From Mycoavidus cysteinexigens (GTDB lineage: Bacteria > Pseudomonadota > Gammaproteobacteria > Burkholderiales > Burkholderiaceae): 64,000 nucleotides of DNA. A program made the position numbers and the translations under genes. The DNA is taken from the NCBI GenBank assembly GCA_031963045.1, contig JASSUK010000042.1, positions 1,030 through 65,029 on the forward strand, given 5' to 3'. This document shows positions 807 through 59,811 of this stretch, one piece after another. Position 1 is the first letter of the stretch. Every line of letters begins with the position of its first letter. The notes under the pieces were generated by a model, which saw only the letters and a list, made by a program, of their open reading frames with translations, had not been told where the DNA came from and did not search any database.

Positions 807-3800
807 TTGAACAGGACATGGGCTCAAGAAGCAAACCGAAAGGTGCCCATAGAAAGTATGTCGCCTATTTCCCCCGCTCATTCTCCGTCAGCCTCCCCTC
901 GTCCAACGCCGCCGGTGCAAAGGCCAACGACAGGAGAGGCCATTGCTGATTCTAGGCCGCTTAATCAAACCGCGCCAGCACACGGGGGAGGATCGCTAAT
1001 AGAAAGGTTTAGGTTTGCTCGTTCGCTTGGGCCAAGGTCTTCGGTTTCAACGCAGCCGCAAGGATCTGAACAGACATCGGAAGCGCTTAGACATGCTCAG
1101 GAAGCTTTGAAGGATGCCGATACGCAACGGATGGAAGGAAAACTCGAGACTGCAGAGGTCACTTATACGGCGGCGATAAACAATTTTAACCGCTCTTATC
1201 CAAATAATCAGTCGATGCCCGCCGATGTGAAAATTGGATTAGCTAAAGCTTATTGCGGGCACGGTATGACTTTATCCATGAGTGGTAGATTCGATGAGGG
1301 GCGTAAGGACTTTGAAATGGCCGTTGGATTAGGATCAAAAAAAGCTACCAGCATATTAAGCATTATTCCATATGGTAGTGCGAGCACCACTGTCCCTAAT
1401 CATTTCAATTCTCAGCAGGCATCACCACTCTCTTTCACTGAAAATCGTGCTGTAAAGCTAACACACGATATTAAGCATACGCGACATTTAGCTGAGAGCT
1501 GGTTAGCTGCTTCTAAGGTTGAACAGCGATCTTTTCGCGAATTAGCCGTAAAGATCCTTCATGCCGCCAATCTAAAAGGTCCCGATAAATTGGCTCATTC
1601 GCAGGAAATTGCGCCGCTAGCGGCAATTCCTGATCGTACAATTTTTAAAGAATGGATAGATATTATGTTTTCAGCTTTGTCTGGGAAGACTACGCTGAAT
1701 CAGCAAGCATTAAGAGGGCTGGAAGTTATGTTACACAAACTTCCACAATCATTGCTGAATACTGAAGAAGCGGAAAGCTATTTAGTAAAGCTGTTAGAGG
1801 CTTTAAATGAAAACCTAAATATAAGGCCCTGGGTAAACGTTGAAGCACTTCAACTTCTACTCCAAACCATTTCACAACTGTTAGATAAACTAGTCTGGAC
1901 TCGGCTTCAATATGGTGTGAACCGTATAAATTTACGTGATAAATTGAACAATAGCCTGATCAAGTTAAAGAATGAGTTAAAGAATAAATTAAAGGACGAT
2001 TACTCAGTATTGGAATTCCAAATCAATTATGTGCGCCAGGCTCTAGAGTTGATTCCTAATGAGGAAAGCCCCTTGGAAGAATTCTGTGATCGCCTATTTA
2101 ACGGATTCATGCTGATCACCAATGTTTACGCAGCAGTTGCAAGCATCAGCAAAGATGTTACTGGGCTTCAGTATGCTATGAATGCCGCTCTCACGAATAA
2201 AACTATGAGTCAAGCCAGCGTGGCGCTCTCTCAAAGAGCCTCTGTCACCTCTATCGCAGCTGGGATTGGGAGCGGCGCGAAAAGTGGCATGCCAGCTATT
2301 AAAGACTTAGCCGAAGCGATGTTTCAAGTGTGGAGATCAAGAGTCGTGTCACGGCCCTGGCTTATGGCATTGCAATTAGCCGATGCGTGCTTTGTGGGAC
2401 AAGGCCAGTTCTTTGAATTCGAGCGTTTTGTTAGGTGGGGTCCATATGGTAATGACAAAAATTTCTTGCAAGGTCTGTGCCAACGCTTAGAGTACATTGC
2501 CGGGCGTTATTATAGTGAAGCCGAACGTTTAAGAGTACTCCCAGCCTCACAAGTTGCTAACACAGTCAGACAGACAGAGGTAATTGCTCGGCAAGCTGTT
2601 AAGTTTTTAAGCATATTCACTATGGAAGGGCAGCCTGAGCCTGTGCAGAAAGCGGCTTTAAATGCTCTAAAGCGCTTAGATGTAAAGCTGCCTAAACTAC
2701 TACAAGATAATCAGGATTTTTTAAAGCTGGTGCGCCCTGACTCTATGTCTGCCCAGCAAGCTGGTCTCCGACCGATTGATATTCCGCCAGCCTGGCATAC
2801 CGACTGGTATACACCGCCTACTAGCCTACTAGAGAAACAATTAGATGGAGTCTCATGGCCCGATTTGAATAGAAAAATTCAGCAATTTGGAAAGACATAT
2901 TTAGAAACTAGACATTTAAAAACTCTGAAAAAAACCGTTAAAGATAATATCCAAGATATCGATATCTTGGTGAAGAAATATATAGAACCAAAATTTACAA
3001 GAATCGATGATGTAAGTGCGCGCTCACCGTTGGCATTCAGTGATACAGTTACTGAGTTTCTCGGCCATTCAAAGCAAAAATTTCTGTTGCTGTTGGGTGA
3101 CGCCGGCGCTGGCAAGACTATATTTAATCACTATCTTACTCGCGACTTGTGGGAAAAGTATAACGAATCGATCCAATTGGATGATGATTCGTCCTTTATT
3201 CCTTTATTTATTCATTTACCAGACTTAGGCCCAACCTTTGGCTCTCAGCCTAATAATTTTATTGTCGAATATTTCGAAAACCAAGGCTTGAAAGCATCAC
3301 AGATTCAGTTCTTACAAAAAACTCGGAATTTTATTTTTATTCTGGATGGTTATGATGAGTTAGGCTACATCCCTCGAGAATTCTATAAATACAATGAATT
3401 AGATAAATGGGAGCACTCAAAAACCATCATCAGCAGCCGACCAGAATATTTAGACTATAATCACAAAAGACATTTTGGCCTGTCCGGTATTCCTGAAATA
3501 TTTCAGGAATACCGGTTTGCGCCATTTTCTGAAGTAGATGTTAAGAATTATATCAAAGAATATATAGGTGAGGAGATCCTAGAAGAAGGAGTAAATAACA
3601 AGAAATATAAAAATGAAAATGAAATTTTTAACTCACTTTCACTTGAATTAAAAGAGTTGGTGCGCAATCCTTTTTTGCTCAACATTGCCTTACATTTCAT
3701 TCCATTAGATGAATCGAAAACGCTCAATGCTGGCCAGCGCCATTTCACGCGGTTTGAATTGTATAATCGATTCGTTGATAGCTGGTGTGATCGGTCTTAT

Positions 3801-6575
3801 GAACATTTAATAAAAAATAAGAAATCAGAAAAACAATTGGCATTTGATATATTAAGCAAAAAATTTGATAAAAATGTCGTATGTTTCGCTAAAAAATTTG
3901 CAGTAGCTATGCATCGAAAACAGCAGAAAAAAGTAGTTACAACTGAATATAAAATTTCAACTCAGGAACATGATTGGTCCGAAGAGCTACTCAAAAAATT
4001 ACTCGATGATGGGAATGTAAAAAACAGGCTGTTGCTTCAGAGCGCTCCATTAATTGATTTATATGATAAGTATGAGTTTATCCACAAATCATTTCAGGAC
4101 TATTTTGTAGCATATGCGCTATGGGACGGGCTTTCTACAATCGATCAGTCAGCATGGATCAACAAGTTGAGTGTGGTGAAAGATCCAGCTGTGCTCGACT
4201 TTCTGGTTGAGCTGGTACAGCAGGATCGAGGTTTAATAGGGCAGCTGATCGCTTGGATTAAGGCTTCGAAGAATGAAGTCTTTAAAACCGCAGCGGCGAA
4301 TGCGCTAACTATTTTGGTCAGAGCGAGAGTGCTGTTGAGTGGAGAGAATTTCAACCAGATTCATGCGCCTGGGGCAGATTTAAGTTATGGAGTGTTTGAC
4401 CATACCAAATTCGAGAAAGCAGATTTAAGAAGAGCGAAATTGCGAGGCGCATGGTTACGCGAAGCCGATTTCAATGGAGCAAAGCTAGCTGATATTGAAT
4501 TTGGGGAAAAACCGGCTTTAGAGTTCAATGAACATGTTAAAGCCTGTAGCCTTTCGTCTGACGGGCGCTGGCTGGCCGTTGGTACGGGCAGTCTTATTAG
4601 GCTGTATCAGGCTGAGAGTTTGAGGCGGAAGAAAACGTTTGACAGGCATTTTGGTGATGTGGTGAGTGTGTCGCTATCGTCAGATGGAAAGTTGTTAGCG
4701 TCTGGGGATGACAAAGGGATGGTGAAAGTGAGGCAGTTTAAAGATGGAGGATGGTTATCACATAATCTGAGTGAAAGCCATAGCGATAAGAGGACTCATG
4801 TATCGCTATCGTCAGACGGGAATTGGTTAGCGTCATGGAATACTGGGGGCCGGGTGAAGGTATGGCAGTTTGAGAGTGGGAGCTGGTCCTCGCATGATCT
4901 ACCCGAAGAGCATGACAATAAGGTAGTGAGTGTGTCGCTATTGCCATTTGGAGAGTCGTTATTGTTAGCAGCTGGCTGTAGAGATGGTAAGGTAGAAGTG
5001 TGGGGGTTAGAAAATGAAGGCGCAGGCTGGTCGCTACGCGTCTCGCCTGAAGGGCATGACCGTGACTATGCTGTAGAGAGTGTGTCGCTATCGTCAGATA
5101 GGAAATTGTTCTTATTAGCGTCTGTGGATACAAGCCGTGTGGTGAAGTTGTGGCAGTTTGAACGTGTAGCCTGGTCGCCGTATGTTATACCTGAAGGGCA
5201 TGACTCTAATGTAATGAATGCTTCGCTATCGTCAGATGGAAAATGGTTAGCATTAGGGAATGGAAATGGTACGGTGACAGTGTGGGATGTGGGAAGCGCA
5301 AAAATGTCCTTGCGAGAGACGCTTGAATGGCATGGTGGTAGAGTAAATAGTGTGTCTCTATCATTAGATGGGAAGCGGTTAGCATCAGGAGGCTCGGACA
5401 AGACGGTGAAGTTATGGGAATTAGAAAGCGCAGGAGCATCGTTGCGTGATCCGCTTGAACGACATCATGGTGTTGTGAGTAGTGTGTCGCTATCTTCAGA
5501 TGGGAATTGGCTCGCGTCAGGAAGTTGGGGCGGGACGGTTAATGTGTGGAAGTTTGAAAGCGGAAGAGAAAATTGGCCGCTGTCTAAGACGCTCGTAAGG
5601 TATGGTGGTGAGATGGGGGGGACTAGTGTCTCGTTATCGTCAGACGGGACGAGGTTAGCATCAGGGAATATAAACGGTAAGGTGGAAGTATGGCAATTAG
5701 AAAGGGGAAGTACTGATTGGCTGTGGCATAAGGCGTTTGAAGGGGGGACTATTTTTAATAGTGTGTCGTTCTCGTCGGACGGGCAGCGGTTAGCATTGGT
5801 GAGGGGGAGGGGTATAGCGAATGTGTGGCAGTTTGAAGGTGATAGTTGGGTAAGCGTGCCGTTACTACCAGATAGGAATTTGGTAGCGTTAAGAACGGAA
5901 GGAATGGTAACGATACGGCGGTTAAGTGATGATAAGGTGGTGAAAAATGTGTCGCTATCGTCAGATGGGAATTGGCTAGCGTCAAGAACCATGGATGGCA
6001 TGGTAAATATGCAGCGGTTAGGAAGTGAACCTACAATTTCGCCGTTGGGTAGTCCGTTTATATGGGGTAGTGGTAGTACGCTGAGTAATGTATCACTATC
6101 GTCAGACGGGAAGCGGTTAGCATTAGGAAGCGTTAACGGGTCGGTGTGGTATTTCGAAGGTGAAAATTGGTCGAAGCTTAAAATACTTGAGGAGCATAGT
6201 GATCTGGTGACTAGTGTGTCGCTATCGCCAGACGGACAGTGGTTAGTTTCTGGAAGTCGGGATGGAACGGTAAAGCTGTGGTCAGTGGATTCAGAAAAAT
6301 GTGAGGCGACAATTCAAAATTCTATTGGAAAGGTTACTTCAGTTGCTTGGCAAGGACTTTCTGTGGACTCTGCTAAAATAGCGACAGGAGGGACCGATGG
6401 GACGGTTCGTATTTGGCAAGTAGATCACAAAGAAAACGATCGGCGGTTCATTTTATCGTGGACCTCATGTCAAAACAGGCTGACCGTAGCCGGCATGTCT
6501 ATTGAAGGCATAGAGGATTTGAGCCCAACAAATGCCCGTTTGCTGAAGCAAAGGGGCGCACATGACGGGGCCTGA
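807..6575 (+). CDS. NLR-like STAND NTPase, paralog 1: N-terminal S/P-rich and TPR/helical region (about 750 aa), NACHT, pentapeptide repeats, divergent WD40 repeats
   Basis: 1922-aa ORF. Walker A LLLLGDAGAGKT (about nt 3085-3120) and Walker B FIFILDGYDEL (about nt 3331-3363). Pentapeptide tract GADLSYGVFDHTKFEKADLRRAKLRGAWLREADFNGAKLADIEF. About 15 repeats built on VSLSSDG(K/N)(W/L)LASG...V(K/N)(V/L)W. The track start is a TTG without an SD; ATG at 858 (MSPISPAHS) is an alternative start. Confidence 0.85.
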   Translation: MNRTWAQEANRKVPIESMSPISPAHSPSASPRPTPPVQRPTTGEAIADSRPLNQTAPAHGGGSLIERFRFARSLGPRSSVSTQPQGSEQTSEALRHAQEALKDADTQRMEGKLETAEVTYTAAINNFNRSYPNNQSMPADVKIGLAKAYCGHGMTLSMSGRFDEGRKDFEMAVGLGSKKATSILSIIPYGSASTTVPNHFNSQQASPLSFTENRAVKLTHDIKHTRHLAESWLAASKVEQRSFRELAVKILHAANLKGPDKLAHSQEIAPLAAIPDRTIFKEWIDIMFSALSGKTTLNQQALRGLEVMLHKLPQSLLNTEEAESYLVKLLEALNENLNIRPWVNVEALQLLLQTISQLLDKLVWTRLQYGVNRINLRDKLNNSLIKLKNELKNKLKDDYSVLEFQINYVRQALELIPNEESPLEEFCDRLFNGFMLITNVYAAVASISKDVTGLQYAMNAALTNKTMSQASVALSQRASVTSIAAGIGSGAKSGMPAIKDLAEAMFQVWRSRVVSRPWLMALQLADACFVGQGQFFEFERFVRWGPYGNDKNFLQGLCQRLEYIAGRYYSEAERLRVLPASQVANTVRQTEVIARQAVKFLSIFTMEGQPEPVQKAALNALKRLDVKLPKLLQDNQDFLKLVRPDSMSAQQAGLRPIDIPPAWHTDWYTPPTSLLEKQLDGVSWPDLNRKIQQFGKTYLETRHLKTLKKTVKDNIQDIDILVKKYIEPKFTRIDDVSARSPLAFSDTVTEFLGHSKQKFLLLLGDAGAGKTIFNHYLTRDLWEKYNESIQLDDDSSFIPLFIHLPDLGPTFGSQPNNFIVEYFENQGLKASQIQFLQKTRNFIFILDGYDELGYIPREFYKYNELDKWEHSKTIISSRPEYLDYNHKRHFGLSGIPEIFQEYRFAPFSEVDVKNYIKEYIGEEILEEGVNNKKYKNENEIFNSLSLELKELVRNPFLLNIALHFIPLDESKTLNAGQRHFTRFELYNRFVDSWCDRSYEHLIKNKKSEKQLAFDILSKKFDKNVVCFAKKFAVAMHRKQQKKVVTTEYKISTQEHDWSEELLKKLLDDGNVKNRLLLQSAPLIDLYDKYEFIHKSFQDYFVAYALWDGLSTIDQSAWINKLSVVKDPAVLDFLVELVQQDRGLIGQLIAWIKASKNEVFKTAAANALTILVRARVLLSGENFNQIHAPGADLSYGVFDHTKFEKADLRRAKLRGAWLREADFNGAKLADIEFGEKPALEFNEHVKACSLSSDGRWLAVGTGSLIRLYQAESLRRKKTFDRHFGDVVSVSLSSDGKLLASGDDKGMVKVRQFKDGGWLSHNLSESHSDKRTHVSLSSDGNWLASWNTGGRVKVWQFESGSWSSHDLPEEHDNKVVSVSLLPFGESLLLAAGCRDGKVEVWGLENEGAGWSLRVSPEGHDRDYAVESVSLSSDRKLFLLASVDTSRVVKLWQFERVAWSPYVIPEGHDSNVMNASLSSDGKWLALGNGNGTVTVWDVGSAKMSLRETLEWHGGRVNSVSLSLDGKRLASGGSDKTVKLWELESAGASLRDPLERHHGVVSSVSLSSDGNWLASGSWGGTVNVWKFESGRENWPLSKTLVRYGGEMGGTSVSLSSDGTRLASGNINGKVEVWQLERGSTDWLWHKAFEGGTIFNSVSFSSDGQRLALVRGRGIANVWQFEGDSWVSVPLLPDRNLVALRTEGMVTIRRLSDDKVVKNVSLSSDGNWLASRTMDGMVNMQRLGSEPTISPLGSPFIWGSGSTLSNVSLSSDGKRLALGSVNGSVWYFEGENWSKLKILEEHSDLVTSVSLSPDGQWLVSGSRDGTVKLWSVDSEKCEATIQNSIGKVTSVAWQGLSVDSAKIATGGTDGTVRIWQVDHKENDRRFILSWTSCQNRLTVAGMSIEGIEDLSPTNARLLKQRGAHDGA

Positions 6576-20376: not shown

Positions 20377-20544
20377 TTTGGATCTCCCTAAGATCTTCTG
20401 CCGTTGCCTATGAGGATTTTATAACGATTGTAGGAGGCCAGTATGCTTTTGGTTTTTACGCCTTTATATTATGTTTGCCTATACTTACGATACCCCATTA
20501 AGGGAGGAATGTTTAAACCAGCATGTATCTAAAATGTACGGTAG

Positions 20545-20688
20545 GCGCAATCCCTCATTGAGGCATGGAGGATGGATTACAACCAAGAACGTCCTCATAG
20601 TGCACTGCAGTATTTGACCTCGCTTGAATTTCGAGCAAAATATCAATCACCATCTGCCTTGAATACTAAGTTATCTATGGCTGCCTAA
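20545..20688 (+). pseudogene. IS3-family transposase (OrfB) C-terminal remnant
   Basis: The translation AQSLIEAWRMDYNQERPHSALQYLTSLEFRAKYQ carries the conserved W..YN..RPHS.L.Y.T..EF tail of IS3 integrase-core transposases. Nothing upstream remains. Confidence 0.7.
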
Positions 20689-20711
20689 ATGGGGGAAGGT
20701 CATACTGCTTG

Positions 20712-20789
20712 GAGATTATTTATATCAAGTTTGCCGGTGCGCACGCTGAATACGACAAAATCAATGCTGAAACGGTAGAGTTGGAGTAA
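20712..20789 (+). pseudogene. HigB-like toxin C-terminal remnant
   Basis: EIIYIKFAGAHAEYDKINAETVELE* matches the conserved (V)xIRF(I/V)GTHxEYDKIDAxT tail of HigB-family toxins. It is cut off next to the IS3 remnant. Confidence 0.5.
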
Positions 20790-22400
20790 TTAACATGGAT
20801 AGTAGGCATACAAGCATTTGTAACTTTGTTAGGTTTTGGCGACGCTAGCAGTTTTATCTTGCGCAGGCATTAGCCAATGGATCTGAGGCTCAAACGCGTA
20901 ACTTGGCAGTGTGATCTTGCGTCCTCTACCGGACGCTACCGCTTGCCAGTTAATTGTGGCCCCATGTTCATATAGCTTCGCCAGAGCCTTTTTTGTATAT
21001 ATACCTGCAAAGCGCCTTCTAGTACTACTTCGCAATGGCGGCTATCTGTTTTTGCAATTTTTCTAAGCATGTCTAGTGCTTTTGAATGTGCTGAAAAATT
21101 GGATGTACTATCAGGGTTAGGCATGAAAATCTCCCTTATAAAGAATGGAATCATTCGGTGCAGCTAAAACGATTCGTTCAATAATAAGATAATATTTCCG
21201 ATGCTATGACTGTGAAAATGGGTATGGAAGCCATTTGAGCATCATTCAATTATGGTAGTCAAGAAGAAAAAGGGAAGTTTGGCACGTGGGTCAGATTCAT
21301 CCATCATTCTCTGCAGGCCACCTGGTGTCGGAATCACTTTATTCGCACGAAACCGTATTCCGTGCATATTCGCAAAGGCAGTCGGGTTGCACGCTATCCT
21401 GAGAGCGCTTTTGCTAAGGCTAACGAATGGGAAAAAATTCTGATTAAGCTGGTTGAGGATCGATATGCATTGTTGCGACAGCGTTCAGCTGTATTGAGCC
21501 GATTGCGTGCTGTGCTCACGGAGTATGAACGTTTATTGGCAAGGGGCTTTGTCAGGTGCTCTGAAGATAGGTAGATAAAAATACAGCAGGTTTTTAGCGT
21601 ATACATTCGCTTCTTAAAAAAACCAACCCGAATTCTACAGCTTATAAATTGACAGCTCCCTCTTAAGGCGCAACAAGCGCGTTGTGTACGCTTTGCTCAA
21701 TTTATGCCTTCCTATGCCTTCCTACTATTTTTAATGCACGCGCCGCTGTGTTTTCCCCTTCCTGAAAAACTATAGGTATCACCCGATTCCTGCCACCCCT
21801 TCTTATATCTAGTATTCGCATGAACCCCATTTCCTGTCTCGCGCTTCACCTCGGATTAAGTGTAATAGGATGTGCGCTGGTCGTTCATGAGCGTGGCTGT
21901 TTTGCCTGACATAAGAAGTTGGCCTGGCACATTTCTCATTGTTTGCTTGAGACTGCGGATGATTAAAAAATAAAACGAATGAGGACAACCCTGCTGTCAC
22001 GTGTCACGGCAAAGATAGTGGAGTCTTGGCAACCTAAAGCAAGCGCGTTAGACCGTGCAAAAACGCGTCTGGAACAAGCAAAAGAGCAGAAAGAAGAAGG
22101 GAAGAAACGACGACGCATTGGGGAGCCTGATTTCAAGCTAAAGCTGCTCTCAAAACGCATCTTAAAGGTGGCGTGCAAATAGTCGAAACAAGACGTCTAC
22201 TGGCAGAACTCCAGCAGATGCGTGCGAAGATTTTGCCATTAACCCAAGATTTTACGTTCGACGAAGGACGTCAAAGCTATCTCAAAGCGCAAACCTATTC
22301 TCCTGACACGGCACAACAAGCAGAAATCCAAGCCCTTCTTGACGATTTACCTCGCGCTCCTCTATCAATCACTATAAATAGAGCATCTACGCTACCGCCT

Positions 22401-22451
22401 TCTGCTGTACCTGCTGTACCTGCTGTGCCTGCTGTGCCTGCTGTGCCTGTG
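22401..22451 (+). repeat. 9-bp tandem repeat (CCTGCTGTR, about 5.5 units) encoding (PAV)n
   Basis: Read directly: tctgctgta cctgctgta cctgctgtg cctgctgtg cctgctgtg cctgtg. Confidence 0.85.
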
Positions 22452-22771
22452 TTGACAACAGGTTTGCCTACCTCCTTTTTATGCCATCCTCGTTGCTTTC
22501 GCCGGTCTTTCGCCGGTGACGCAGGATTATCAGCTCGTGGGGTCTGATGAGATTAAAAATGCGCGACATCTTGCGTGGTGTTTACAACAAACGCATTACG
22601 ATACCGCGCAATACAAACAGCTATCCGCACTCGCGCGTGAGGTCATAGAACGCTTTGGTTAGCGCGCCGGCAAAGATTTAGTCTGTCTGCAAGAAGCGGC
22701 AGAATTAGCGGTAGTCCCTTCTTTATCCAGGATGCCATTGTTAGGCGTAGGCCCCCGAGCAGGAGAAAAAA

Positions 22772-25700
22772 TTGAATTCATTGGGTATCTTCAGCGCCGG
22801 AGGGCGTCCGCTATTGCCAGTCACATTTCCACAGCGCCAGCCGCAAGCGGGGAATCAAGAAAAAGCCCAAAAATCGTACGGAGATGGGGTAGAGAAGGCT
22901 AAAACTGAACATGAAAAAAATCCTGGTGATCCGCAAGCAAAACAAAACTTAGATGCGATACGTAACAAATACTTCCCTTTTTTTAGTGGGCTTCAAGAGC
23001 CTGGTGCAGCGTTTAACCAGGAAAAAAGCAAGCAGGTGGATTATCTGTTTAAAAAGGCACTATCGACGCTAAGATCCTTAGCGGTACCGAATAAACCCAG
23101 CCTTTTTCTGGTGTATGCCCACGACAATCCCGCTCACGCCGAAAAGGCCGAGGCCAATATTTCTAGTTATTTAATCAATGAGTTATCTCAAATCCGAGCC
23201 AACCTGTATTCGGATCAAACGCCGATGGGGAAACCGTATTTGAGCTCCCCGGAAGATTTAAAAAAGGACGGTAAGTTAGAAGATATCTTAACCAGTCAGC
23301 TTTGTTTATTGCCCGATCAGTTGCGAGACGATGTAAAACCGGTCGATAAGGTCGTGGTGTGTTGTTCTGAGTTATTAGGAAGGTACTTGAGATGGCCGCA
23401 CTATGAAAAGTTTTACCAACAAATTCAAGAAGCCTATTTCAAAGATCGAGAAGCCTATCGCAAAAATGACGCACACGCCGGCACTTCGGCAATACGTCAA
23501 GTGGTCAGACAATTCTCCCAAGAAGAAGCCTATAAGGCGGATTTTCATCATGTATTGACGGAAATGGCTTTTTTGCAAATCCGGGCCGAGCACTCGGAAG
23601 CGCAGCACGGCATTATCCCGATTTCGTTAACCATAAATAGCTATCAACAATGCCTGGCGCATTTTATTCCAGCGACCACGGTGCGCATGGAGGATATTCT
23701 CCGATTTGAGGTGCAAGCCAAATCGGGAATAGAGGTATATCCGAATCAAAGTCGGCACTTGCTGCTGTTTAAGCTGATCGAGCGGCTGTTAGTGGGCAGC
23801 AATGAGGCCCAAACGTTTCTTGGCAAGTTTTGGCATGGGTATAACGATTGCATTAAATCTTCAGCGCTTGGCACACTTGAGTTTGCCAATTTATTAGATG
23901 GCATTTTTGCTGACATAGACAGAGAGCTGCGCAACCAGCTTGTTCTTAATGTACAGGAACAACAGCGTAAAGAACTGGAATCGAAGAAAGAGCCGCTTGC
24001 GATCTTAGGCGAAAACATCAAAAAAGAATATTTCACGACGTGGCGAAACCTGGTGGAAATTCAAGATGGCCTGGCGATGTATGTTGCACTGGAATGCAGC
24101 TTCATTACCAATACAAAAGAGCGCTTTAGTTTAGAAGAGAAGGTGAAAGAGTTTCTTGTTTCAGGAGAAAAAAAAGTACTGCTTTTATTGGGCGAAGCCG
24201 GTTCTGGAAAATCAACATTTAACCGGTATTTGGCGCGTAGTCTATGGGAAACGTATGACAAGGAAACCAATAAATCTAGCCAAACTCCTATTCCTTTATT
24301 TATTCCGCTATCGAGCTTGAAAGAGCCTAATGATAATCTTATTGCCGAATATCTTATAAAAATGGGGCTTAAAAAAAGCCAGATTGCTGATTTAAAAGAA
24401 AATTATCGCTTTATTTTTATTTTGGATGGGTATGATGAAATCAAAGATCGAACCCGCCTATTCTACATCGAAAATAAACTGGATCAATGGAAAGCCAAAG
24501 TCATCATTACCAGTCGGCCAGAATATTTTGGCAATGGATATGAGTGCCAGTTCCATCCAAAAGGCCAGGCATATTTACTCCAGGCATATCGACTCTCTCC
24601 ATTTTCTGATTTGACGATTGAGGAGTATGTAAACAAATACAAAAACGCGTACCCAGAATTAGAGAAAAATATCGTAGAGCATGGAGAGATTCTGAAGCAA
24701 CCCGAAGTTAAAGAGTTGGTACGCAATCCATTTTTGCTTAAGATGGCCTTGAGTGAATTGCCTGCTTTGAGCCAGAAATACAAGAATAGCGGACAGCGTA
24801 TTACCCGAATTGCGTTATATGATCAATTTGTAGAGAGCTGGTTTAAGCGTTCCCAGGATCGATTGAGAGATATTCGCTTAACTCACGCAGAGCAGAAGGC
24901 ATTTGATTTTTTAAACAAAGCCTTTATTAGGCATGGAACAAAATTCAGCAAAGATTTAGCGATAGCGATGTATCAAGCTGGATTGGTGAGTGTGGCGTAT
25001 TCTGAGCAACTCTCCTATGATCAGTCTGATGCTGTAGAGAAAGATTGGCGAGATAAATTTTTAAGTGATCGTAATGAACAAGTTAAGTTATTGCGCTTTA
25101 ATGCTCCGCTGATATGCCAAGATGACCGATATCAGTTTATTCATAAATCGATTCAGGATTATTTAGTTGCGCGAGCCATGTGGGAAGAGCTGGAAAACGC
25201 AAGCGAACGCGATGCCTCCAGTGGTGCTGAGCCGCTGAACGAGATAAAAAATGTGCGCCTGATATGGGAGGCATTGGACCCTGCCATTCAAGTCGATACC
25301 ACCGCATTATTGAACCGATTCAATTTAGTGGAGGAGCTAGCCGTCCAGAGTTTTTTAGTCGAGCGAGTCCAGCAGAACCGAGCGTTGGTGAAGCTCCTGT
25401 TGACGTGGATCAAAGCCTCAACGAGCCAAGATACTGTGAGTACAGCCGCGGCGAATGCGATCACGATCTTGGTTAGAGCAGGAGTGCAGTTTAATGGAAT
25501 GGATTTACAAGGAATTCAGATTCTGGGTGCAGATCTGAGCTATGGCGTATTTGACTCTGTACAGTTGCAAGGTGCAGATCTCAGCAAGACGAACTTAACT
25601 GGCATATGGTTGCGCAACGCAGGTTTAACGGGGGCGTGCATGGAGGGCGTGCAGTTTGGGGAATTACCGAGCTTGCAGTTGGAAGAATCTGTGGATGCTT

Positions 25701-27775
25701 GCTGCTATTCGCCCGATGGGCGCTACTTAGTGGCTGCATTAGGAGCAGGCCTCTGGTCTGGACCAGGGAGGATTGCGCTGTATGAGGTCGAGACGTTAGC
25801 GCATGTGCATACGTTCGAAGGGCATACCAGCCTGGTGACAAGTGTCGCTTTCTCACCCGATGGCCAAACGCTGGCCTCGGGCAGTGATGACAAAATGGTG
25901 CGGTTGTGGTCGGTCGCCGAGAAAAAGCCGTTGCACACGTTCGAAGGGCATATCAACAAGGTGACAAGTGTCGCGTTCTCGCCCGATGGCCAAATGCTGG
26001 CTTCCTGCAGTGGGTACGACCCAGTGCAGCTGTGGTTGCCGTGGCACATGTTCGGCGAGCATAGCCAAACGCTGGCTTCGGGCAGTGGAGATAATACGGT
26101 GCGGCTGTGGTCGGTCGTTGAGAAAAAGCCGTTGCACACGTTCGAAGGATATAGCAGTTATGTGACAAGCGTCGCGTTCTCACCTGATGGCCAAACGCTG
26201 GCCTTGGGCAGTGGAGATAATACGGTGCGGCTGTGGTCGGTCGCTGAGAAAAAGCTGTTGCACACGTTCGAAGGACATAGCGGTTACGTGACCAGCGTCG
26301 CGTTCTCGCCCGATGGCCAAACGCTGGCATCGGGCAGTGATGACGATACGGTGCGGCTGTGGTCGGTCGCCGAGAAAGAGCCGTTGCACACGTTCAAAGG
26401 GCATACTAGCGGGGTGAAAAGCGTCGCGTTCTCGCCCGATGGCCAAACGCTAGCCTCGGGCAGTGTGGACGATACGGTGCGGCTGTGGTCAGTCGCTGAG
26501 AAAAAGCCGTTGCACATGTTCGAAGGGCATATCAGCCTGGTGACAAGCGTCGCGTTCTCAAGCAATGGCCAAACATTAGCCTCCGGCAGTATAGACGGGA
26601 CGGTGCGGCTGTGGTCGGTCGCCGAGAAAAAGCCGTTGCACACGTTTGAAGAGCATACCGACTATGCGACCAGCGTCGCGTTCTCGCCCGATGGCCAAAT
26701 GCTGGCATCGGGCAGTCGTGACAAGACGATGCGGCTGTGGTCGGTCGCCGAGAAAAAGCTGTGGCACACGTTCGAAGGACATATAGGTTATGTGACCAGC
26801 GTCGCGTTCTCAAGCAATGGCCAAACACTGGCCTCCGGCAGTATAGACAATACGATGCGGCTGTGGTCGGTCGCTGAGAAAAAGTCGTTGCACACGTTCA
26901 AACATACCCACCGGGTGACCAGCGTCGCGTTCTCGCCCGATGGCCAAATGCTGGCATCGGGCAGCGGGGACAATACGATGCGGCTGTGGTCGGTCGCCGA
27001 GAAAAAGCTGTGGCACACGTTCGAAGGACATAGCAGTTATGTGGCAAGCGTCGTGTTCTCGCCCGATGGCCAAACGCTGGCCTCGGGCAGCTATGACAAT
27101 ACGGTGCGGCTGTGGTCGGTCGCTGAGAAAAAGCCGTTGCACACGTTCAAAGAACATACCCACTATGCGACCAGCGTCGCGTTCTCAAGCGATGGCAAAA
27201 CACTGGCCTCGGGCAGTAGGGACAAGACGGTGCGGCTGTGGTCAATAGCCGAGAAAAAACCGCTGCACACGCTCAAAGGACATACCTACGAGGCGACCAG
27301 CGTCGCGTTCTCGCCCGATGACCAGACGCTGGCCTCGGGGAGTGGGGACCATACGGTGCGGCTGTGGTCGACGACTTCAGGACAATGTTTAACCGTGATT
27401 CAAGGTTTTAATGGGGCCGTCAACTCTGTTGCTTGGTACGAGAGCGCTGAAGGAGTCTGGCTGGCAACGGGAAGTAGTGACAAAGCGATACGCCTTTGGA
27501 AAGTGCATCGGGATGGTGAGATGTGCCGCGTGACATTACACTGGGCCTCAGCACAAACAACATTAACGACACCAGGGATGTCCATTCAAGATGTGATCGG
27601 ACTCAGCGCGAAGAATATCGAACTACTCAAACAACGCGGTGCAAAGGGAGAGCCACACTATACTGAGGAGCAAGAAGCGCGGCCATTGCTAACAGAAAGA
27701 GCAGAAGCACCAGCATTCACGCTACCTGCCCAAGCTGGTAACCGCTATGGATCGACTTATCTCAATTTCGCTTGA
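22772..27775 (+). CDS. NLR-like STAND NTPase, paralog 2: SEFIR/TIR-like N-terminal domain, NACHT, pentapeptide repeats, about 14 WD40 blades
   Basis: 1667-aa ORF. TTG start with SD AGGAGA (22761-22766) 5 nt upstream. SLFLVYAHDN...KVVVCCSELL is SEFIR/TIR-like. Walker A LLLLGEAGSGKST and Walker B FIFILDGYDEI. Pentapeptide tract GADLSYGVFDSVQLQGADLSKTNLTGIWLRNAGLTGACMEGVQF. 42-aa WD40 units (GH..VTSVAFSPDGQTLASGS.D.TVRLWS). Confidence 0.9.
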   Translation: MNSLGIFSAGGRPLLPVTFPQRQPQAGNQEKAQKSYGDGVEKAKTEHEKNPGDPQAKQNLDAIRNKYFPFFSGLQEPGAAFNQEKSKQVDYLFKKALSTLRSLAVPNKPSLFLVYAHDNPAHAEKAEANISSYLINELSQIRANLYSDQTPMGKPYLSSPEDLKKDGKLEDILTSQLCLLPDQLRDDVKPVDKVVVCCSELLGRYLRWPHYEKFYQQIQEAYFKDREAYRKNDAHAGTSAIRQVVRQFSQEEAYKADFHHVLTEMAFLQIRAEHSEAQHGIIPISLTINSYQQCLAHFIPATTVRMEDILRFEVQAKSGIEVYPNQSRHLLLFKLIERLLVGSNEAQTFLGKFWHGYNDCIKSSALGTLEFANLLDGIFADIDRELRNQLVLNVQEQQRKELESKKEPLAILGENIKKEYFTTWRNLVEIQDGLAMYVALECSFITNTKERFSLEEKVKEFLVSGEKKVLLLLGEAGSGKSTFNRYLARSLWETYDKETNKSSQTPIPLFIPLSSLKEPNDNLIAEYLIKMGLKKSQIADLKENYRFIFILDGYDEIKDRTRLFYIENKLDQWKAKVIITSRPEYFGNGYECQFHPKGQAYLLQAYRLSPFSDLTIEEYVNKYKNAYPELEKNIVEHGEILKQPEVKELVRNPFLLKMALSELPALSQKYKNSGQRITRIALYDQFVESWFKRSQDRLRDIRLTHAEQKAFDFLNKAFIRHGTKFSKDLAIAMYQAGLVSVAYSEQLSYDQSDAVEKDWRDKFLSDRNEQVKLLRFNAPLICQDDRYQFIHKSIQDYLVARAMWEELENASERDASSGAEPLNEIKNVRLIWEALDPAIQVDTTALLNRFNLVEELAVQSFLVERVQQNRALVKLLLTWIKASTSQDTVSTAAANAITILVRAGVQFNGMDLQGIQILGADLSYGVFDSVQLQGADLSKTNLTGIWLRNAGLTGACMEGVQFGELPSLQLEESVDACCYSPDGRYLVAALGAGLWSGPGRIALYEVETLAHVHTFEGHTSLVTSVAFSPDGQTLASGSDDKMVRLWSVAEKKPLHTFEGHINKVTSVAFSPDGQMLASCSGYDPVQLWLPWHMFGEHSQTLASGSGDNTVRLWSVVEKKPLHTFEGYSSYVTSVAFSPDGQTLALGSGDNTVRLWSVAEKKLLHTFEGHSGYVTSVAFSPDGQTLASGSDDDTVRLWSVAEKEPLHTFKGHTSGVKSVAFSPDGQTLASGSVDDTVRLWSVAEKKPLHMFEGHISLVTSVAFSSNGQTLASGSIDGTVRLWSVAEKKPLHTFEEHTDYATSVAFSPDGQMLASGSRDKTMRLWSVAEKKLWHTFEGHIGYVTSVAFSSNGQTLASGSIDNTMRLWSVAEKKSLHTFKHTHRVTSVAFSPDGQMLASGSGDNTMRLWSVAEKKLWHTFEGHSSYVASVVFSPDGQTLASGSYDNTVRLWSVAEKKPLHTFKEHTHYATSVAFSSDGKTLASGSRDKTVRLWSIAEKKPLHTLKGHTYEATSVAFSPDDQTLASGSGDHTVRLWSTTSGQCLTVIQGFNGAVNSVAWYESAEGVWLATGSSDKAIRLWKVHRDGEMCRVTLHWASAQTTLTTPGMSIQDVIGLSAKNIELLKQRGAKGEPHYTEEQEARPLLTERAEAPAFTLPAQAGNRYGSTYLNFA
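25800..27370 (+). repeat. array of about 12 near-identical 126-bp (42-codon) tandem repeats encoding WD40 blades
   Basis: GTGCGGCTGTGGTCGGTCGCCGAGAAAAAGCCGTTGCACACGTTCGAAGG recurs every 126 nt (26099, 26225, 26351, 26477, 26603 and onward). One unit is 123 nt and one is collapsed. Confidence 0.9.
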
Positions 27776-56115: not shown

Positions 56116-56616
56116 ATGGCTATGAAAGATCGTCGTGAAAAAACTTTTAAAATTCTGGTCGATGCGCGTGAGAGGCAGATTAAAGCACTAGAAACACAGC
56201 TTGCATCCTTGCGTTCTCAATATGCCGAACTTCAACAAGCCACTGGGCAGAAAAAAGAAGCACTTGCTAAACAAATGCAAGAAGAGGCTGAGCGTAATGA
56301 TCAAATGCAATCCATGATGACTGGCGGAGGTACTTTTAAGGTGAATGAACTTTACACGCTTCGCCAATACCAAGGCATAGTAAGTGAGCGGCGTGTGCAG
56401 TTTGAATCTGAATGCGCGCAGGCAGAGCAAGCAGAACAAGCAAAACAAAATGAGATACAAGGCATACAACATCAAATTGCTAAAAACCAAGCGCAACGCG
56501 ATGAATATAAAAAATTATTAACAAAAATAAAAAATAAAGCGTTTAAAACCGCAGAAGATGCACAAGATGAGTCTGCTGAAGAGGCCTTGGTTGCCCAACG
56601 CAGATTCAGTCGCTGA
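56116..56616 (+). CDS. sctO: coiled-coil stalk protein SctO (hrpB7 position)
   Basis: 166 aa, entirely heptad-like and Q/E/K-rich, directly after sctN. Confidence 0.6.
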   Translation: MAMKDRREKTFKILVDARERQIKALETQLASLRSQYAELQQATGQKKEALAKQMQEEAERNDQMQSMMTGGGTFKVNELYTLRQYQGIVSERRVQFESECAQAEQAEQAKQNEIQGIQHQIAKNQAQRDEYKKLLTKIKNKAFKTAEDAQDESAEEALVAQRRFSR

Positions 56617-56693
56617 GGACTTTGCTTATGGTAGTTACAAGCAGATTTTCAGGAGGTATTGGTAAAGAGGCTAGGCATAACAATAAGTAGAGG

Positions 56694-57533
56694 GTGGTAG
56701 TGGACAGTATACAAAATATGATGAATTTGCATGAATCATTCAGCAATTTCATTTTAACTATGGCGCTATGCAGCCTGCGCATTGGGATTGCTTTTCTCAT
56801 TATTCCCGTGATGGGCGAGCAAGTAGTTCAGGGACTCAATCGCACGGTTATCAGTATGTTGCTGGCGAGTTTCGTGGCTTATGGTCAATCTATTGGCGCG
56901 CTTCAACTAACGCCCATAATGGTCATATCCATTATGGCTAAAGAAGCCATTTTGGGACTTATCTTTGGTTTTTGCGCATCTACGGTATTTTGGGTTGCAG
57001 CCAATGTGGGCTTTCTTATCGATGACTTATCTGGTTTTAATAATGTGCAGGTGAGTAACCCAATGCGTAGCGACACGAGTACGCCTACTTCCTCTTTGTT
57101 ATCCCAGCTTGCAATTACGGCATTTTGGGTGCTAGGTGGCATGATGTTTTTGCTGGGAGCGCTCTATCAGTCTTTTCAATGGTGGCCGATTTTAAGCATA
57201 CAGCCCGAGGGGCTACCTATACTTGAATCCTTTGTGCTGAGCTATACAGACTCCCTTATGGAAATGACTGCAAAGTTAGCTGCACCGATGATGCTGATTT
57301 TGGTTATGGTCGATTTTTCTTTTGGTTTTTTGGCTAAAGGTGCAGAGAAAATTGATACGATGTCTTTAAGTATGCCCGTAAAAGGCGCTATGACCTTATT
57401 ATTATTAGCTATTTTTATCACCATTTTTATTAGCCAAGTCCGATCACAGCTTTCATTGCAAGGCATAGCAGGAACAATTCATTCCTTGCGCCCAGAAAAT
57501 AAAGAAGAGGCAAAAAGCACCAATAAGCACTAA
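56694..57533 (+). CDS. sctT: T3SS export apparatus protein SctT (HrcT/FliR family)
   Basis: Polytopic membrane protein with the LRIGIAFLIIPVMG N-terminal block typical of the FliR family. The GTG start at 56694 or ATG at 56718 are both possible. Confidence 0.9.
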   Translation: MVVDSIQNMMNLHESFSNFILTMALCSLRIGIAFLIIPVMGEQVVQGLNRTVISMLLASFVAYGQSIGALQLTPIMVISIMAKEAILGLIFGFCASTVFWVAANVGFLIDDLSGFNNVQVSNPMRSDTSTPTSSLLSQLAITAFWVLGGMMFLLGALYQSFQWWPILSIQPEGLPILESFVLSYTDSLMEMTAKLAAPMMLILVMVDFSFGFLAKGAEKIDTMSLSMPVKGAMTLLLLAIFITIFISQVRSQLSLQGIAGTIHSLRPENKEEAKSTNKH

Positions 57534-57984
57534 TAAGCACGTATGGTTTTTCGTGATACTTATCTATATACCTTGTGTTTTATCGCCCCATCTATATGGG
57601 TGGGGCGATAAAAATCCCACAGTCAGCCTATTTTTCCTCGCTACCCCATCAAATTACAGCGATTTCCTTTCATTGGACGTTATCTCTCACGGTAATGCAA
57701 TGTAAATGGCTTTGTTGCGGGCTACTCAGATTTTTACATACTGGTAAAAAAATGAGAATTCTTGAAAGCATTGCCCAGATATTTTGAGTGTTTATATCTA
57801 TCTCCATCATCCTACTATTTCGTCGGCTTGATAAATCCTTTCCTGGGCTTCTTTCTGGGTTTTTTCTCTGGAACGACACAGATCGGTATGGGCCCGTATT
57901 TTTATTTTTTTTGAAGACCTGTTTTGAACCTGTTCTCAAGCAGGAGACAAACGGTCGTTATTTGATGGGGATGGTTTAGTAAAA

Positions 57985-59811
57985 ATGAAATTTTTGGGTA
58001 CCATCTGGTCTGCTATTGGCCTGAGTCTCGCGATATTTGTAGCAGGAATATGTCCTGCGCAAGCAGCAACTGTTCCATGGAAAAAAGAGAAAATTCACTA
58101 TTCAGTAGAAAGTAAGCCGCTCAAAGATGTATTGCGCGACTTTGCAGCAAGTCAAGGTATTGCAGCTACTATTGCACCGAATGTAGATGGCATGGTGAGT
58201 GGCAAATTTAATATGTCTCCTCAGGCTTTTTTGAGTGCACTCTCTTCTACTTTTGGATTTACTTGGTTTTATGACGGTACTTTGCTAGATATTTCTGCGG
58301 CAAGTGACGTTAAAAGCACGCTGATTTCAATGCAATACGGCAGCATGGAAGATCTGCGTAGCGCGCTTGATCGCATAGGATTATCGGATAAACGCTTTCC
58401 TATTGTGTATGACGATGTACAGCATACTGCGATGGTAAGTGGTCCAGCTCATTACGTACAGCTGGTATCTAATGTAGCGCAAAATGTAGATGGCAATGCA
58501 GGTAAAGATGCAGGCACACAAGTTCGTATTTTTAAGCTTCGCCACTCTTCAGCAACGGATCGCATCGTAACCGTAGGTGGCAATACCGTGAATGTGCCAG
58601 GTGTAGCCAGTGTATTGCAGAGCTTATTTAGCAACTCACGAAGTTCTGCACAAACTTTACTATCACCCAGCATCGTAAGAGCGAATTCAATGCTCGATGT
58701 AGACGGGCGCATACCTAATGGCTCTGTGAGTTTTGGCAATGGAGGTTTACTTCCTCCATTGCCTCCTGGTTATGCAGCAGGAGGCAACTTGGGTAGTGTT
58801 CCTGTCAATGACCAAGTAAACCAGTTATTTCCAGGCACGCCATCCCTCCCGGGCATGGGTGCAGTAGGCGGTATGGCAGGCACTCCCATGGGGCCAACCG
58901 GTCGTGTAGTAACTAACCCAACAGATAGTCTATTACCTGTAATTAAGGCCGATGCGCGGACCAATTCCATTTTGGTACGTGATGTACCCTCGCGTATGAG
59001 TCAGTACAAGCCACTCATTGATGAACTCGACGTTAAACCGCGTTTAATTGAAATCCAAGCTACGATGATTGAGATCGACAGTGGCGCATTAGACCAAATT
59101 GGTGTGGATTGGCGTGCGCACAATAGCCATGGCGATATCCAAACGGGTGATGGAAATAGACAGCAAAATGCATATAACGGCAATATAGATCCTAAATTTG
59201 GGACAGTGCCTAGTACAGGTGCTGTTCTTCCAGGAGGGGCCCTTTTAGCCACTCCAGCAGGGATTTCGATGACGGCTGTGTTAGGCGATGCAGGCCGATA
59301 TCTCATGGCAAGAGTCAATGCGCTTACACAAACCAATCAAGCACGCATTGAAGCAAGCCCCAAAGTTACGACGCTAGACAATATAGAAGCCGTAATGGAC
59401 AACTCGCAGCAAATGTTTGTACCTGTAACTGGCTATGCAGGTGGTAATCTATACAATATTTCAACAGGCATTTCGCTGCGTGTATTGCCTATGGTGGTTG
59501 AAGAAGAGGGCGCCACGCAGATCAAGCTTGAAGTTAATATTGAAAACGGCCAATTTGCGCCATCCGTAAATCAAACGCCAGGTGCCATTCCGATGGTCGA
59601 CACCAGCCAGATCAAAACACAAGCCTTTATCACGCAAGGCCAAAGTTTGTTGATTGCTGGTTACCAAAAGAAACACGATACAAAAGGCGTATCAGGCATT
59701 CCTCTTCTCTCCAAAATCCCATTTTTGGGCGCATTATTTCGCTATAAAAACGACACAAATTCACGGAAAGAACAACTTTTCTTGCTCTCTCCACGTGTGA
59801 TTGATCTATAA
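57985..59811 (+). CDS. sctC: T3SS outer-membrane secretin SctC (HrcC)
   Basis: Signal peptide MKFLGTIWSAIGLSLAIFVAGICPAQA. C-terminal secretin block (LLIAGYQKKHDTKGVSGIPLLSKIPFLGALFRYK). Confidence 0.92.
   Translation: MKFLGTIWSAIGLSLAIFVAGICPAQAATVPWKKEKIHYSVESKPLKDVLRDFAASQGIAATIAPNVDGMVSGKFNMSPQAFLSALSSTFGFTWFYDGTLLDISAASDVKSTLISMQYGSMEDLRSALDRIGLSDKRFPIVYDDVQHTAMVSGPAHYVQLVSNVAQNVDGNAGKDAGTQVRIFKLRHSSATDRIVTVGGNTVNVPGVASVLQSLFSNSRSSAQTLLSPSIVRANSMLDVDGRIPNGSVSFGNGGLLPPLPPGYAAGGNLGSVPVNDQVNQLFPGTPSLPGMGAVGGMAGTPMGPTGRVVTNPTDSLLPVIKADARTNSILVRDVPSRMSQYKPLIDELDVKPRLIEIQATMIEIDSGALDQIGVDWRAHNSHGDIQTGDGNRQQNAYNGNIDPKFGTVPSTGAVLPGGALLATPAGISMTAVLGDAGRYLMARVNALTQTNQARIEASPKVTTLDNIEAVMDNSQQMFVPVTGYAGGNLYNISTGISLRVLPMVVEEEGATQIKLEVNIENGQFAPSVNQTPGAIPMVDTSQIKTQAFITQGQSLLIAGYQKKHDTKGVSGIPLLSKIPFLGALFRYKNDTNSRKEQLFLLSPRVIDL

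Follow-up and report, generated by a model that had tools for sequence, protein, structure and literature searches.

Proteins in which an N-terminal head is joined to a NACHT NTPase and C-terminal repeats, the plan of NLR-like (STAND) receptors, have been described from bioinformatics both in fungi and in the endofungal bacterium Mycoavidus cysteinexigens. Wojciechowski et al. 2022 (PLoS Comput Biol, PMC9815663) defined a 'TIR-like' head of Pezizomycotina NLRs (representative PQE30996; median 389 aa), related it to Pfam SEFIR with an HHblits probability of 90%, found it fused to NACHT-WD40 in M. cysteinexigens, and reported a further head, 'NLR_Helical', in Mortierellomycetes and Mycoavidus. 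Ciach et al. 2024 (Evol Lett, PMC11291939) described NACHT-PPR-WD40 receptors common to M. cysteinexigens and Mortierellomycota (45-50% identity, reciprocal best hits), discussed transfer into fungi and left open whether the receptors serve in symbiosis; the head domain was not described there. Here we analyze one such gene, located at positions 22772-27775 on the forward strand of a 64,000-nucleotide stretch of M. cysteinexigens DNA (contig JASSUK010000042.1), which we refer to in its entirety as the window.

The architecture of this gene is typical of the Mycoavidus lineage and had already been published from bioinformatics (Wojciechowski et al. 2022; Ciach et al. 2024), so the original prediction, which was made from the letters of the window, was mistaken in calling a pentapeptide spacer and a SEFIR-type head on a NACHT-WD40 body unusual. 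What we add are the invariant polar motifs of the head, including a candidate catalytic glutamate (Glu264), five hypervariable positions in the WD40 repeats, and a high proportion of intact paralogues. We read the gene as a paralogue of an NLR-like (STAND) family common to endofungal Mycoavidus-type Burkholderiaceae and to fungi, whose product may be a ligand-gated switch with a TIR-like enzymatic head, that is, a conflict or surveillance sensor that would arrest the bacterial cell; we regard this reading as evenly poised.

Domain plan of the encoded protein

The gene is an uninterrupted open reading frame (ORF; 22772..27775, +) encoding 1667 aa, with a Shine-Dalgarno sequence (AGGAGA) at 22761-22766 and a 5-nt spacer preceding a TTG start codon at 22772. 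The public gene call, made on the 112-kb NCBI contig, has the identical protein and the same start, read as methionine, and the protein forms a singleton cluster at 90% identity. To keep the WD40 signal from masking other domains, segments of the protein were scanned separately. From the N- to the C-terminus, the protein consists of a short leader, a SEFIR-resembling head of the TIR clan, the NACHT NTPase, a spacer of pentapeptide repeats and two propellers of WD40 repeats, with the following features:

22761..22774, +: Shine-Dalgarno sequence, 5-nt spacer and TTG start codon (sequence reading; same start in the public gene call)
22772..23035, +: 88-aa leader with abundant Gln, Pro and Lys (translation)
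23084..23740, +: predicted TIR/SEFIR-like head, of the 'TIR-like' family of PQE30996, aa 105-323 (AlphaFold2, Foldseek, BLASTP)
23561..23563, +: Glu264 codon (LTE motif), candidate counterpart of the catalytic Glu of TIR domains (conservation; hhalign path)
23741..24031, +: helical linker between head and NACHT, aa 324-420 (long helices in the AlphaFold2 model; conserved among homologues)
24176..24646, +: core of the NACHT NTPase, aa 469-625; Walker A, 24191-24217; Walker B, 24410-24442 (PF05729)
24647..25471, +: NACHT-associated arm, aa 626-900, probably helical or winged-helix (co-conserved with the NACHT core)
25484..25657, +: pentapeptide-repeat spacer, aa 905-962 (PF00805; weak NCBIfam pentapeptide matches)
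25679..27499, +: WD40 array of 14 repeats, two propellers' worth, aa 970-1576 (PF00400, hand count, DNA repeats)
26027..26101, +: truncated in-frame WD unit of 25 aa (75 bp), aa 1086-1110 (hand count; repeat period 201 = 126 + 75)
27500..27775, +: C-terminal tail of 91 aa and stop codon (translation)

The main lines of the original prediction were thereby borne out: the start that it had read (AGGAGA, 5 nt, TTG) agrees with the public gene call, every block of its domain order (SEFIR/TIR-like, NACHT, pentapeptide, WD40) is present, and the protein follows the STAND/NLR logic of head, NACHT switch and repeat sensor, with a head of TIR/SEFIR-clan character. The NACHT core, which it had placed by the P-loop and the FIFILDGYDEI motif, matched PF05729 at 48.5 bits (cutoff 26.7), with both Walker A (GEAGSGKST, aa 474-482) and Walker B (FIFILDGYDEI, aa 547-557) intact. 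The arm that follows is co-conserved with this core in Mycoavidus and fungal homologues (93-99% of the query covered), and its helical or winged-helix character is proposed from other STAND proteins. The predicted pentapeptide spacer matched PF00805 at 36.7 bits (cutoff 20.2), an element also found in the fungal and Mycoavidus homologues, and the predicted 14 blades correspond to 14 PF00400 stretches, whereas counting by hand gave 14 units plus the truncated one.

At the DNA level, Tandem Repeats Finder described the WD40 array as 10.4 copies of a 126-bp period with 82% matches, and the repeats are ~80% identical, with a maximum of 91%. The truncated unit arose by in-frame deletions summing to 51 bp (LPWHMFGEHSQTLASGSGDNTVRLW), and the unit preceding it has a degenerate end (SCSGYDPVQLW); the truncation is a scar left by recombination or else a collapse in the assembly. 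The part of the gene that encodes the pentapeptide spacer and the WD40 array (25472-27511) has a GC content at third codon positions (GC3) of 0.67, compared to 0.33-0.47 for the type III secretion system (T3SS) and housekeeping genes of the window, while the head (0.47) and NACHT (0.44) parts are near native, and the flanking ORFs lacking a family match lie at 0.24-0.33. This elevated GC3 could stem from GC-biased gene conversion among repeats or paralogues, or from foreign origin.

Most paralogues carry a TPR-like leader, while that of the focal protein is short and non-TPR; a search of the paralogue leaders against the focal leader and the region upstream of the focal start found neither a match nor a degraded remnant. 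A Pfam scan of the C-terminal tail found no family match beyond the last WD40 repeat.

The head was assigned by structure prediction and by similarity to its published fungal relatives. The original prediction had pointed to a SEFIR/TIR-like block at aa 108-205; its two motifs were placed (SLFLVYAHDN, aa 110-119; KVVVCCSELL, aa 193-202), and the fold found support in modeling and in the published HHblits match, yet no SEFIR or TIR profile of Pfam, NCBIfam or PADLOC recognized it and the conserved domain proved larger, ~220 aa (aa 105-323). Together with its linker it occupies aa 89-420, N-terminal to the NACHT P-loop at aa 474. AlphaFold2, run on a 23-sequence alignment, modeled aa 89-420 with a predicted local distance difference test score of 84.4 (80.1 for aa 105-323), in a beta-alpha-beta-alpha-beta topology followed by a helical insert, an alpha helix, a strand, another helix and a short last strand. 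Along the sequence, the elements are predicted as beta-A (SLFLVY), beta-B (LYS), beta-C (KVVVCC), the helical insert, the helix FHHVLTEMAFLQIR and beta-D (IIPIS).

The comparison with known structures by Foldseek, which the original prediction had proposed, returned SEFIR and TIR domains at the top, with weak scores. Of the 20 best PDB matches of the trimmed 219-aa model, 17 were SEFIR or TIR chains, among them the ACT1/IL-17R SEFIR chain 9ot1_E (probability 0.98, E 9.7e-3, template modeling (TM) scores 0.34/0.42) and the IL-17RA SEFIR structure 4nux (probability 0.97, TM 0.35/0.39), both below the usual TM of 0.5; SPARTA TIR-APAZ chains matched with probabilities of 0.97-0.99, followed by TIR-STING, AbTir and MyD88. 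The full 332-aa head model scored worse than the trimmed one because of its long C-terminal helices. By BLASTP, the head was 32% identical over 272 aa (E 5e-36) to PQE30996, whose sequence was taken from the supplement of Wojciechowski et al. 2022. Taken together, the assignment of a TIR/SEFIR-like fold is consistent, with modest support from the models.

Invariant residues of the head and hypervariable positions of the WD40 array

Across 55 bacterial-type and 108 fungal-type sequences, the head motifs P..F.VYAH, SD, I...Q..LLP, V....S..L..Y, FHHV.TE.A.L..R and P..L are conserved at 85-100%. The glutamate of the LTE motif, Glu264, is present in 100% of the bacterial-type group, 99% of the fungal-type group and 87/87 Mycoavidus paralogues, and an acidic residue (E or D) follows CCS in 82/84 Mycoavidus copies. 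The head is a putative enzyme because of this invariant polar set (YAH, SD, Q, S, FHH..TE..R), a constellation that suggests catalysis over a pure adaptor role.

Glu264 lies 17 residues ahead of the beta-D strand IIPIS, and ~17 residues is what we take to be the spacing between the catalytic Glu and the 'vIPvFY' strand of plant TIR domains, in which the Glu of the 'LnEL' consensus is presumably the catalytic one. We aligned a 164-sequence head profile with a 121-sequence plant TIR profile using hhalign, and the best local path put Glu264 on the 'LnEL' Glu, as it should if Glu264 were the catalytic residue. As evidence of homology this alignment was rejected, its global mode giving nonsense and its local mode being non-significant; the equivalence of Glu264 with the TIR catalytic Glu is therefore no more than suggestive.

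In the WD40 array, variation is concentrated at a few sites. Among the eleven canonical 42-aa WD40 units, an entropy of at least 1.5 bits was confined to positions 18, 19 and 20 (after GH) and positions 38 and 40 (SGS-x-D-x). At these five positions, nonsynonymous and synonymous codon differences numbered 217 and 24, respectively, as opposed to 427 and 304 elsewhere. Such a distribution is what a diversifying ligand-binding face would be expected to show.

Family, distribution and paralogues

The survey of homologues, which had likewise been proposed with the original prediction, revealed a Mycoavidus-fungal family. With the first 440 aa as query, a word-indexed search of 5.8 billion proteins returned 22, of which those with a named source came from Mycoavidus sp. 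HKI, Linnemannia gamsii and Rhizophagus diaphanus. When one genome each for 185,579 prokaryotic species was searched, 179 copies were confirmed, and the best 80 of the 179 matches correspond to 74 loci, all in six M. cysteinexigens metagenome-assembled genomes (MAGs), which hold 21, 19, 13, 11, 5 and 5 loci. When 1.84 billion cluster representatives were searched exhaustively with HMMER, 327 family members were identified, and all 18 of the more distant ones with a source name belong to Pezizomycotina (Fusarium, Trichoderma, Aspergillus, Diaporthe, Daldinia, Pestalotiopsis, Coleophoma, Cadophora and Trichoglossum), several being annotated as NACHT- or NB-ARC-containing.

The NACHT region gave a similar distribution: its first relatives were those of M. 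cysteinexigens (44-47% identity), followed by Kalaharituber, Gigasporaceae and many Mortierellaceae (31-40%), and many of these homologues, fungal and Mycoavidus alike, share the NACHT, pentapeptide and WD40 composition. Outside Mycoavidus, all source-named relatives of the head and NACHT regions are fungal, with the single exception of a Propionibacteriaceae MAG fragment. A chlamydial origin, raised by a weak IncD match, was dropped, as the homologues point to Mycoavidus and thus to a Mycoavidus-like endofungal bacterium, related to Burkholderia, as the source of the window.

Within Mycoavidus, the focal gene is 75-84% identical in DNA to its paralogues, and the flanks of the window show no synteny with any of the 74 loci. 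These loci contain 92 head-bearing ORFs, 70 of them uncut by the end of the locus, and 63 of these 70 judgeable copies (~90%) are intact giants with at least 900 aa downstream of the head and a Walker A motif; the head family is maintained, not decaying. Of the giants in which at least 900 aa follow the head, 52 appear to be of the WD40 type and 21 have other repeats; the sensors of the roughly one quarter lacking WD40-type repeats are presumably of the HEAT or TPR kind. In 16 of the 74 loci, two or three head-bearing giants lie within 20 kb of each other.

A second bacterial sub-family of heads is represented by two proteins, P0017 and P0020 (the latter encoded on the 2.96-Mb scaffold_1 of the Mycoavidus MAG BRE-AV005), which have a Mycoavidus-style TPR leader; the fragments seen contain no NACHT. 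P0017 shares 53% identity over 327 aa with a protein of Rhizophagus diaphanus (P0016) and only ~39% with the window copy, a hint that genes passed between bacteria and fungi more than once.

Proposed mode of action

In the reading that we favor, a protein ligand would bind to the WD40 propellers on their hypervariable top face, and binding would free the NACHT module for nucleotide exchange and oligomerization. Oligomerization would gather the heads and switch them on, each head being a putative TIR-like NAD+- or nucleotide-cleaving enzyme with Glu264 as its candidate catalytic residue, and the activated sensor would arrest the bacterial cell. The parts of this scheme differ in their footing. 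The domain anatomy, the family membership, the expansion and intactness of the paralogues and the pattern of hypervariability were observed directly, while ligand gating, oligomerization, enzymatic activity and the site of action we infer from analogy: the propellers are proposed as the sensor because their variable positions lie on the surface, and NACHT oligomerization because its motifs are intact and the family behaves in this manner elsewhere. A head acting as a passive SEFIR-type adaptor appears less likely. Regarding the site of action, we lean slightly toward the inside of the bacterium rather than the host hypha, because characterized bacterial STAND and TIR systems act cell-autonomously.

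Several results weigh against this reading. The Foldseek matches of the head had E values of ~1e-2, none reaching 1e-3, with TM scores of 0.2-0.5. No Pfam, NCBIfam or PADLOC model, those of SEFIR and TIR included, matched aa 1-420; in Pfam, neither SEFIR (PF08357, at E <=1 in the N-terminal 420 aa) nor TIR (PF01582/PF13676, in the head) was detected. The same three collections gave no SEFIR or TIR match for 22 homologues scanned singly, and SEFIR was absent from the 25 families most matched by 23 family members at E <=5. When a hidden Markov model of the family was searched against the sequences of the whole PDB, the only matches were TPR noise from the paralogue leaders, and the hhalign path that places Glu264 on the plant TIR glutamate is non-significant (probability 0.7%, P 0.08). 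PADLOC models identified no defense system among the neighbors of the focal gene and no defense island. Finally, nothing specific supports action inside the bacterium, and the fungal-only kinship of the family points to a role at the host interface.

Genomic neighborhood and a host-directed alternative

The surroundings of the gene are relevant to where its product might act, and their main features are these:

807..6575, +: second NLR-like giant of 1922 aa, with an ARM_5 alpha-solenoid head, a NACHT region and WD40 (PF23948, 120.9 bits)
10047-12725, +: large low-GC ORF (GC3 0.24-0.33) with a weak ARM_5 match (family scan)
14123-15535, -: ISNCY-family transposase, between the two NLR-like giants (NF033594, 514 bits)
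18565-20376, 29112-30578 and 32948-34513, -: three large low-GC ORFs (GC3 0.24-0.33), no family match (family scan)
38930..59811, strand not assigned: complete Hrp-type T3SS cluster, outside the focal gene (family scan)

The NACHT region of the second giant shares 38% identity with that of the focal gene, and the protein is probably an example of the 'NLR_Helical' type (Wojciechowski et al. 2022); fungal homologues with ARM_5 and NACHT were found, one of which also has a pentapeptide repeat. It is followed by an ARM_5-like protein, the ISNCY transposase, a HEAT-repeat protein, an ORF lacking a family match and ~2.4 kb of ORF fragments. This last region (20377-22771, immediately upstream of the focal gene) holds only short fragments, including an ORF at 22173-22547, and looks like pseudogene debris; the 9-bp tandem repeat CTGCTGTGC, present in 5.3 copies at 22402-22449, encodes a short Pro-Ala-Val repeat. 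The four large low-GC ORFs of the window could be lineage-specific effectors or recently acquired genes. A promoter and terminator scan of 20.3-29.2 kb gave no more than would be expected by chance.

Downstream of the focal gene lie three ORFs without a family match, then Ppa and NadE, and then the T3SS cluster, comprising HrpB1-like, HrpD5/SctD, SctQ, HpaP, SctV, SctU, HrpB4, SctL, SctN and the SctC secretin. The original prediction had named a neighboring T3SS as grounds for a host-directed role; the cluster is real and complete, though as a neighbor it is less immediate than this implied, starting ~11 kb downstream behind unrelated genes.

The alternative that survives best is that the protein is a host-directed effector or mimic, exported into the fungal cytoplasm, for instance by the Hrp-type T3SS, where it would engage the homologous network of NACHT-pentapeptide-WD40 or TIR-like NLRs that the host itself possesses. 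By forming hetero-oligomers with this network, serving as its decoy or setting it off, the protein would help to establish or police the symbiosis. The distribution of the family argues in its favor: apart from the Propionibacteriaceae fragment, the source-named relatives of head and NACHT outside Mycoavidus are fungal and include Mortierellaceae and Gigasporaceae. Both of these fungal families host Burkholderia-related endobacteria. The reciprocal best hits between Mycoavidus and Mortierellomycota, for which a role in symbiosis was raised (Ciach et al. 2024, PMC11291939), are in line with such a function, as are the dozens of copies, ~90% of them intact, in endosymbiont genomes, and the hypervariable WD40 surfaces would suit an arms race with a variable partner.

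The evidence for export is more divided. A complete T3SS is present in the same window, and the first 29 residues of the focal protein contain no acidic residue, which is compatible with, not diagnostic of, an Hrp-type secretion signal. However, no PIP/hrpII-box-like motif (TTCG-N15/16-TTCG) was found within 1.6 kb upstream of the gene, the nearest match on the + strand being at 21154, compared to two such motifs (TTCG-N16-TTCG, at 49787-49810 on the - strand and 49936-49959 on the + strand) in the divergent intergenic region of the T3SS; that this organism uses the box is an assumption, and the motif is not enriched over the window as a whole (7 versus 3.6 expected). The distance of the T3SS, and its separation from the gene by Ppa and NadE, also count against a functional link, and a 185-kDa protein with two propellers would be an awkward T3SS substrate, though large effectors are known. 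On balance we consider the host-directed alternative possible, yet on the unlikely side.

A bolder form of this idea holds that the endosymbiont's fungal-type NLRs would act on or in the host hypha, through mixed oligomers or as decoys in the host NLR network, and not as bacterial immune receptors, and that the head would be a new enzymatic branch of the TIR clan with a His-His-Thr-Glu site. If true, a bacterium would be controlling the innate immunity of a eukaryote with copies of the eukaryote's own receptor class. We deem this combined proposal rather doubtful.

Further alternatives

The original prediction had also proposed an anti-phage or abortive-infection sensor of the bNACHT/Avs type, whose propellers would recognize a phage protein and whose TIR-like head would deplete NAD+. 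The domain logic does equal that of bacterial NACHT and Avs defense proteins, and the invariant residues of the head resemble those of an enzyme. A precedent exists in a bacterial SEFIR-domain protein that protects against phage (Millman et al. 2022). We found no evidence supporting this function for the focal gene. PADLOC matched the focal protein only in its WD40 region (HEAT-ARM_XIII), apart from P-loop noise, and no NACHT, Avs, SEFIR or TIR defense model matched the protein, its neighbors or 23 head homologues, nor is there a defense-island context. In addition, dozens of paralogues per genome are unusual for a defense gene, and among the best 80 of the 179 prokaryotic matches the head family occurs only in Mycoavidus, whereas defense systems usually span phyla. 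An anti-phage function is, in our judgment, improbable.

We also weighed whether the gene is a functionless relic of gene transfer from fungi, or a repeat-rich gene that amplifies selfishly. The WD40 array is a compositional outlier (GC3 0.67 against 0.33-0.47 for native genes), an insertion sequence transposase and ORF fragments without a family match lie nearby, one WD unit is truncated, and several database homologues are short fragments. Set against this, the 5-kb reading frame is uninterrupted and retains both Walker motifs, 63 of the 70 judgeable paralogues are intact giants, the head motifs are invariant across 163 sequences, and many synonymous differences have accumulated outside the hypervariable WD40 sites, which together make a relic very improbable. 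Least credible of all is an assembly chimera that misjoined head, NACHT and WD40 array across repeats, for even though the array is repetitive, with one truncated unit, and the exact product is on no short-read Logan contig, the head-NACHT-WD40 order recurs in dozens of independent Mycoavidus loci and in database proteins, the gene sits on a 112-kb contig, and the WD40 repeats are only about 80% identical in DNA (91% at most), so the array can be assembled.

Comparison with known systems

The value of the focal gene lies in its testable residues and in what it may tell of endosymbiont NLR biology, not in architectural novelty. A fungal endosymbiont keeps dozens of NLR-type receptors that are otherwise related to fungal immune receptors, and bacterial defense, host manipulation or partner recognition are all possible uses of them; Glu264 as a candidate residue, the invariant polar residues around it, the hypervariable WD40 positions and the intact paralogues make the function experimentally addressable. 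Since no copy of Pfam, NCBIfam or PADLOC that we searched recognizes the head, it merits an annotation profile of its own.

Compared to the bNACHT and Avs proteins of bacteria, the focal protein has the same three-part STAND design (effector, NTPase, repeat sensor), yet it belongs to a family with massive, lineage-restricted paralogy and fungal relatives, and with neither a PADLOC match nor a defense island. The SEFIR domains of IL-17R and ACT1 and the TIR NADases (SPARTA TIR-APAZ, AbTir and plant TIRs) are the best structural matches of the modeled head and appear to share its beta-alpha order, and as in plant TIR domains an invariant Glu stands ~17 residues before beta-D, a suggestive likeness. 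Unlike these domains, the focal head has a ~50-aa helical insert between beta-C and the Glu-bearing helix, TM scores below 0.5 and no profile membership.

Among fungal proteins, the HET-E/NWD receptors likewise combine NACHT with highly similar tandem WD40 repeats, whose variability falls on a few surface positions, the hypervariable sites of HET-E serving as the comparison; the focal protein differs from them in having a pentapeptide spacer and no HET-domain head, and in residing in a bacterium. The likeness to the head of PQE30996 is closer, as both lie N-terminal to NACHT and share the motifs F.VYAH, SDQ, ILxxQxCLLP, VDKVxxCxSE, FHHxLTExAFLxIR and HGII, with the difference that the focal copy is bacterial and has a short, non-TPR leader. 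Finally, the NACHT-PPR-WD40 NLRs of Ciach et al. 2024 have an identical order of NACHT, pentapeptide and WD40, with the closest relatives of the focal NACHT being those of M. cysteinexigens; in the window, this common body is borne by two genes with different heads, the TIR-like type in the focal gene and an ARM-like one in the second giant.

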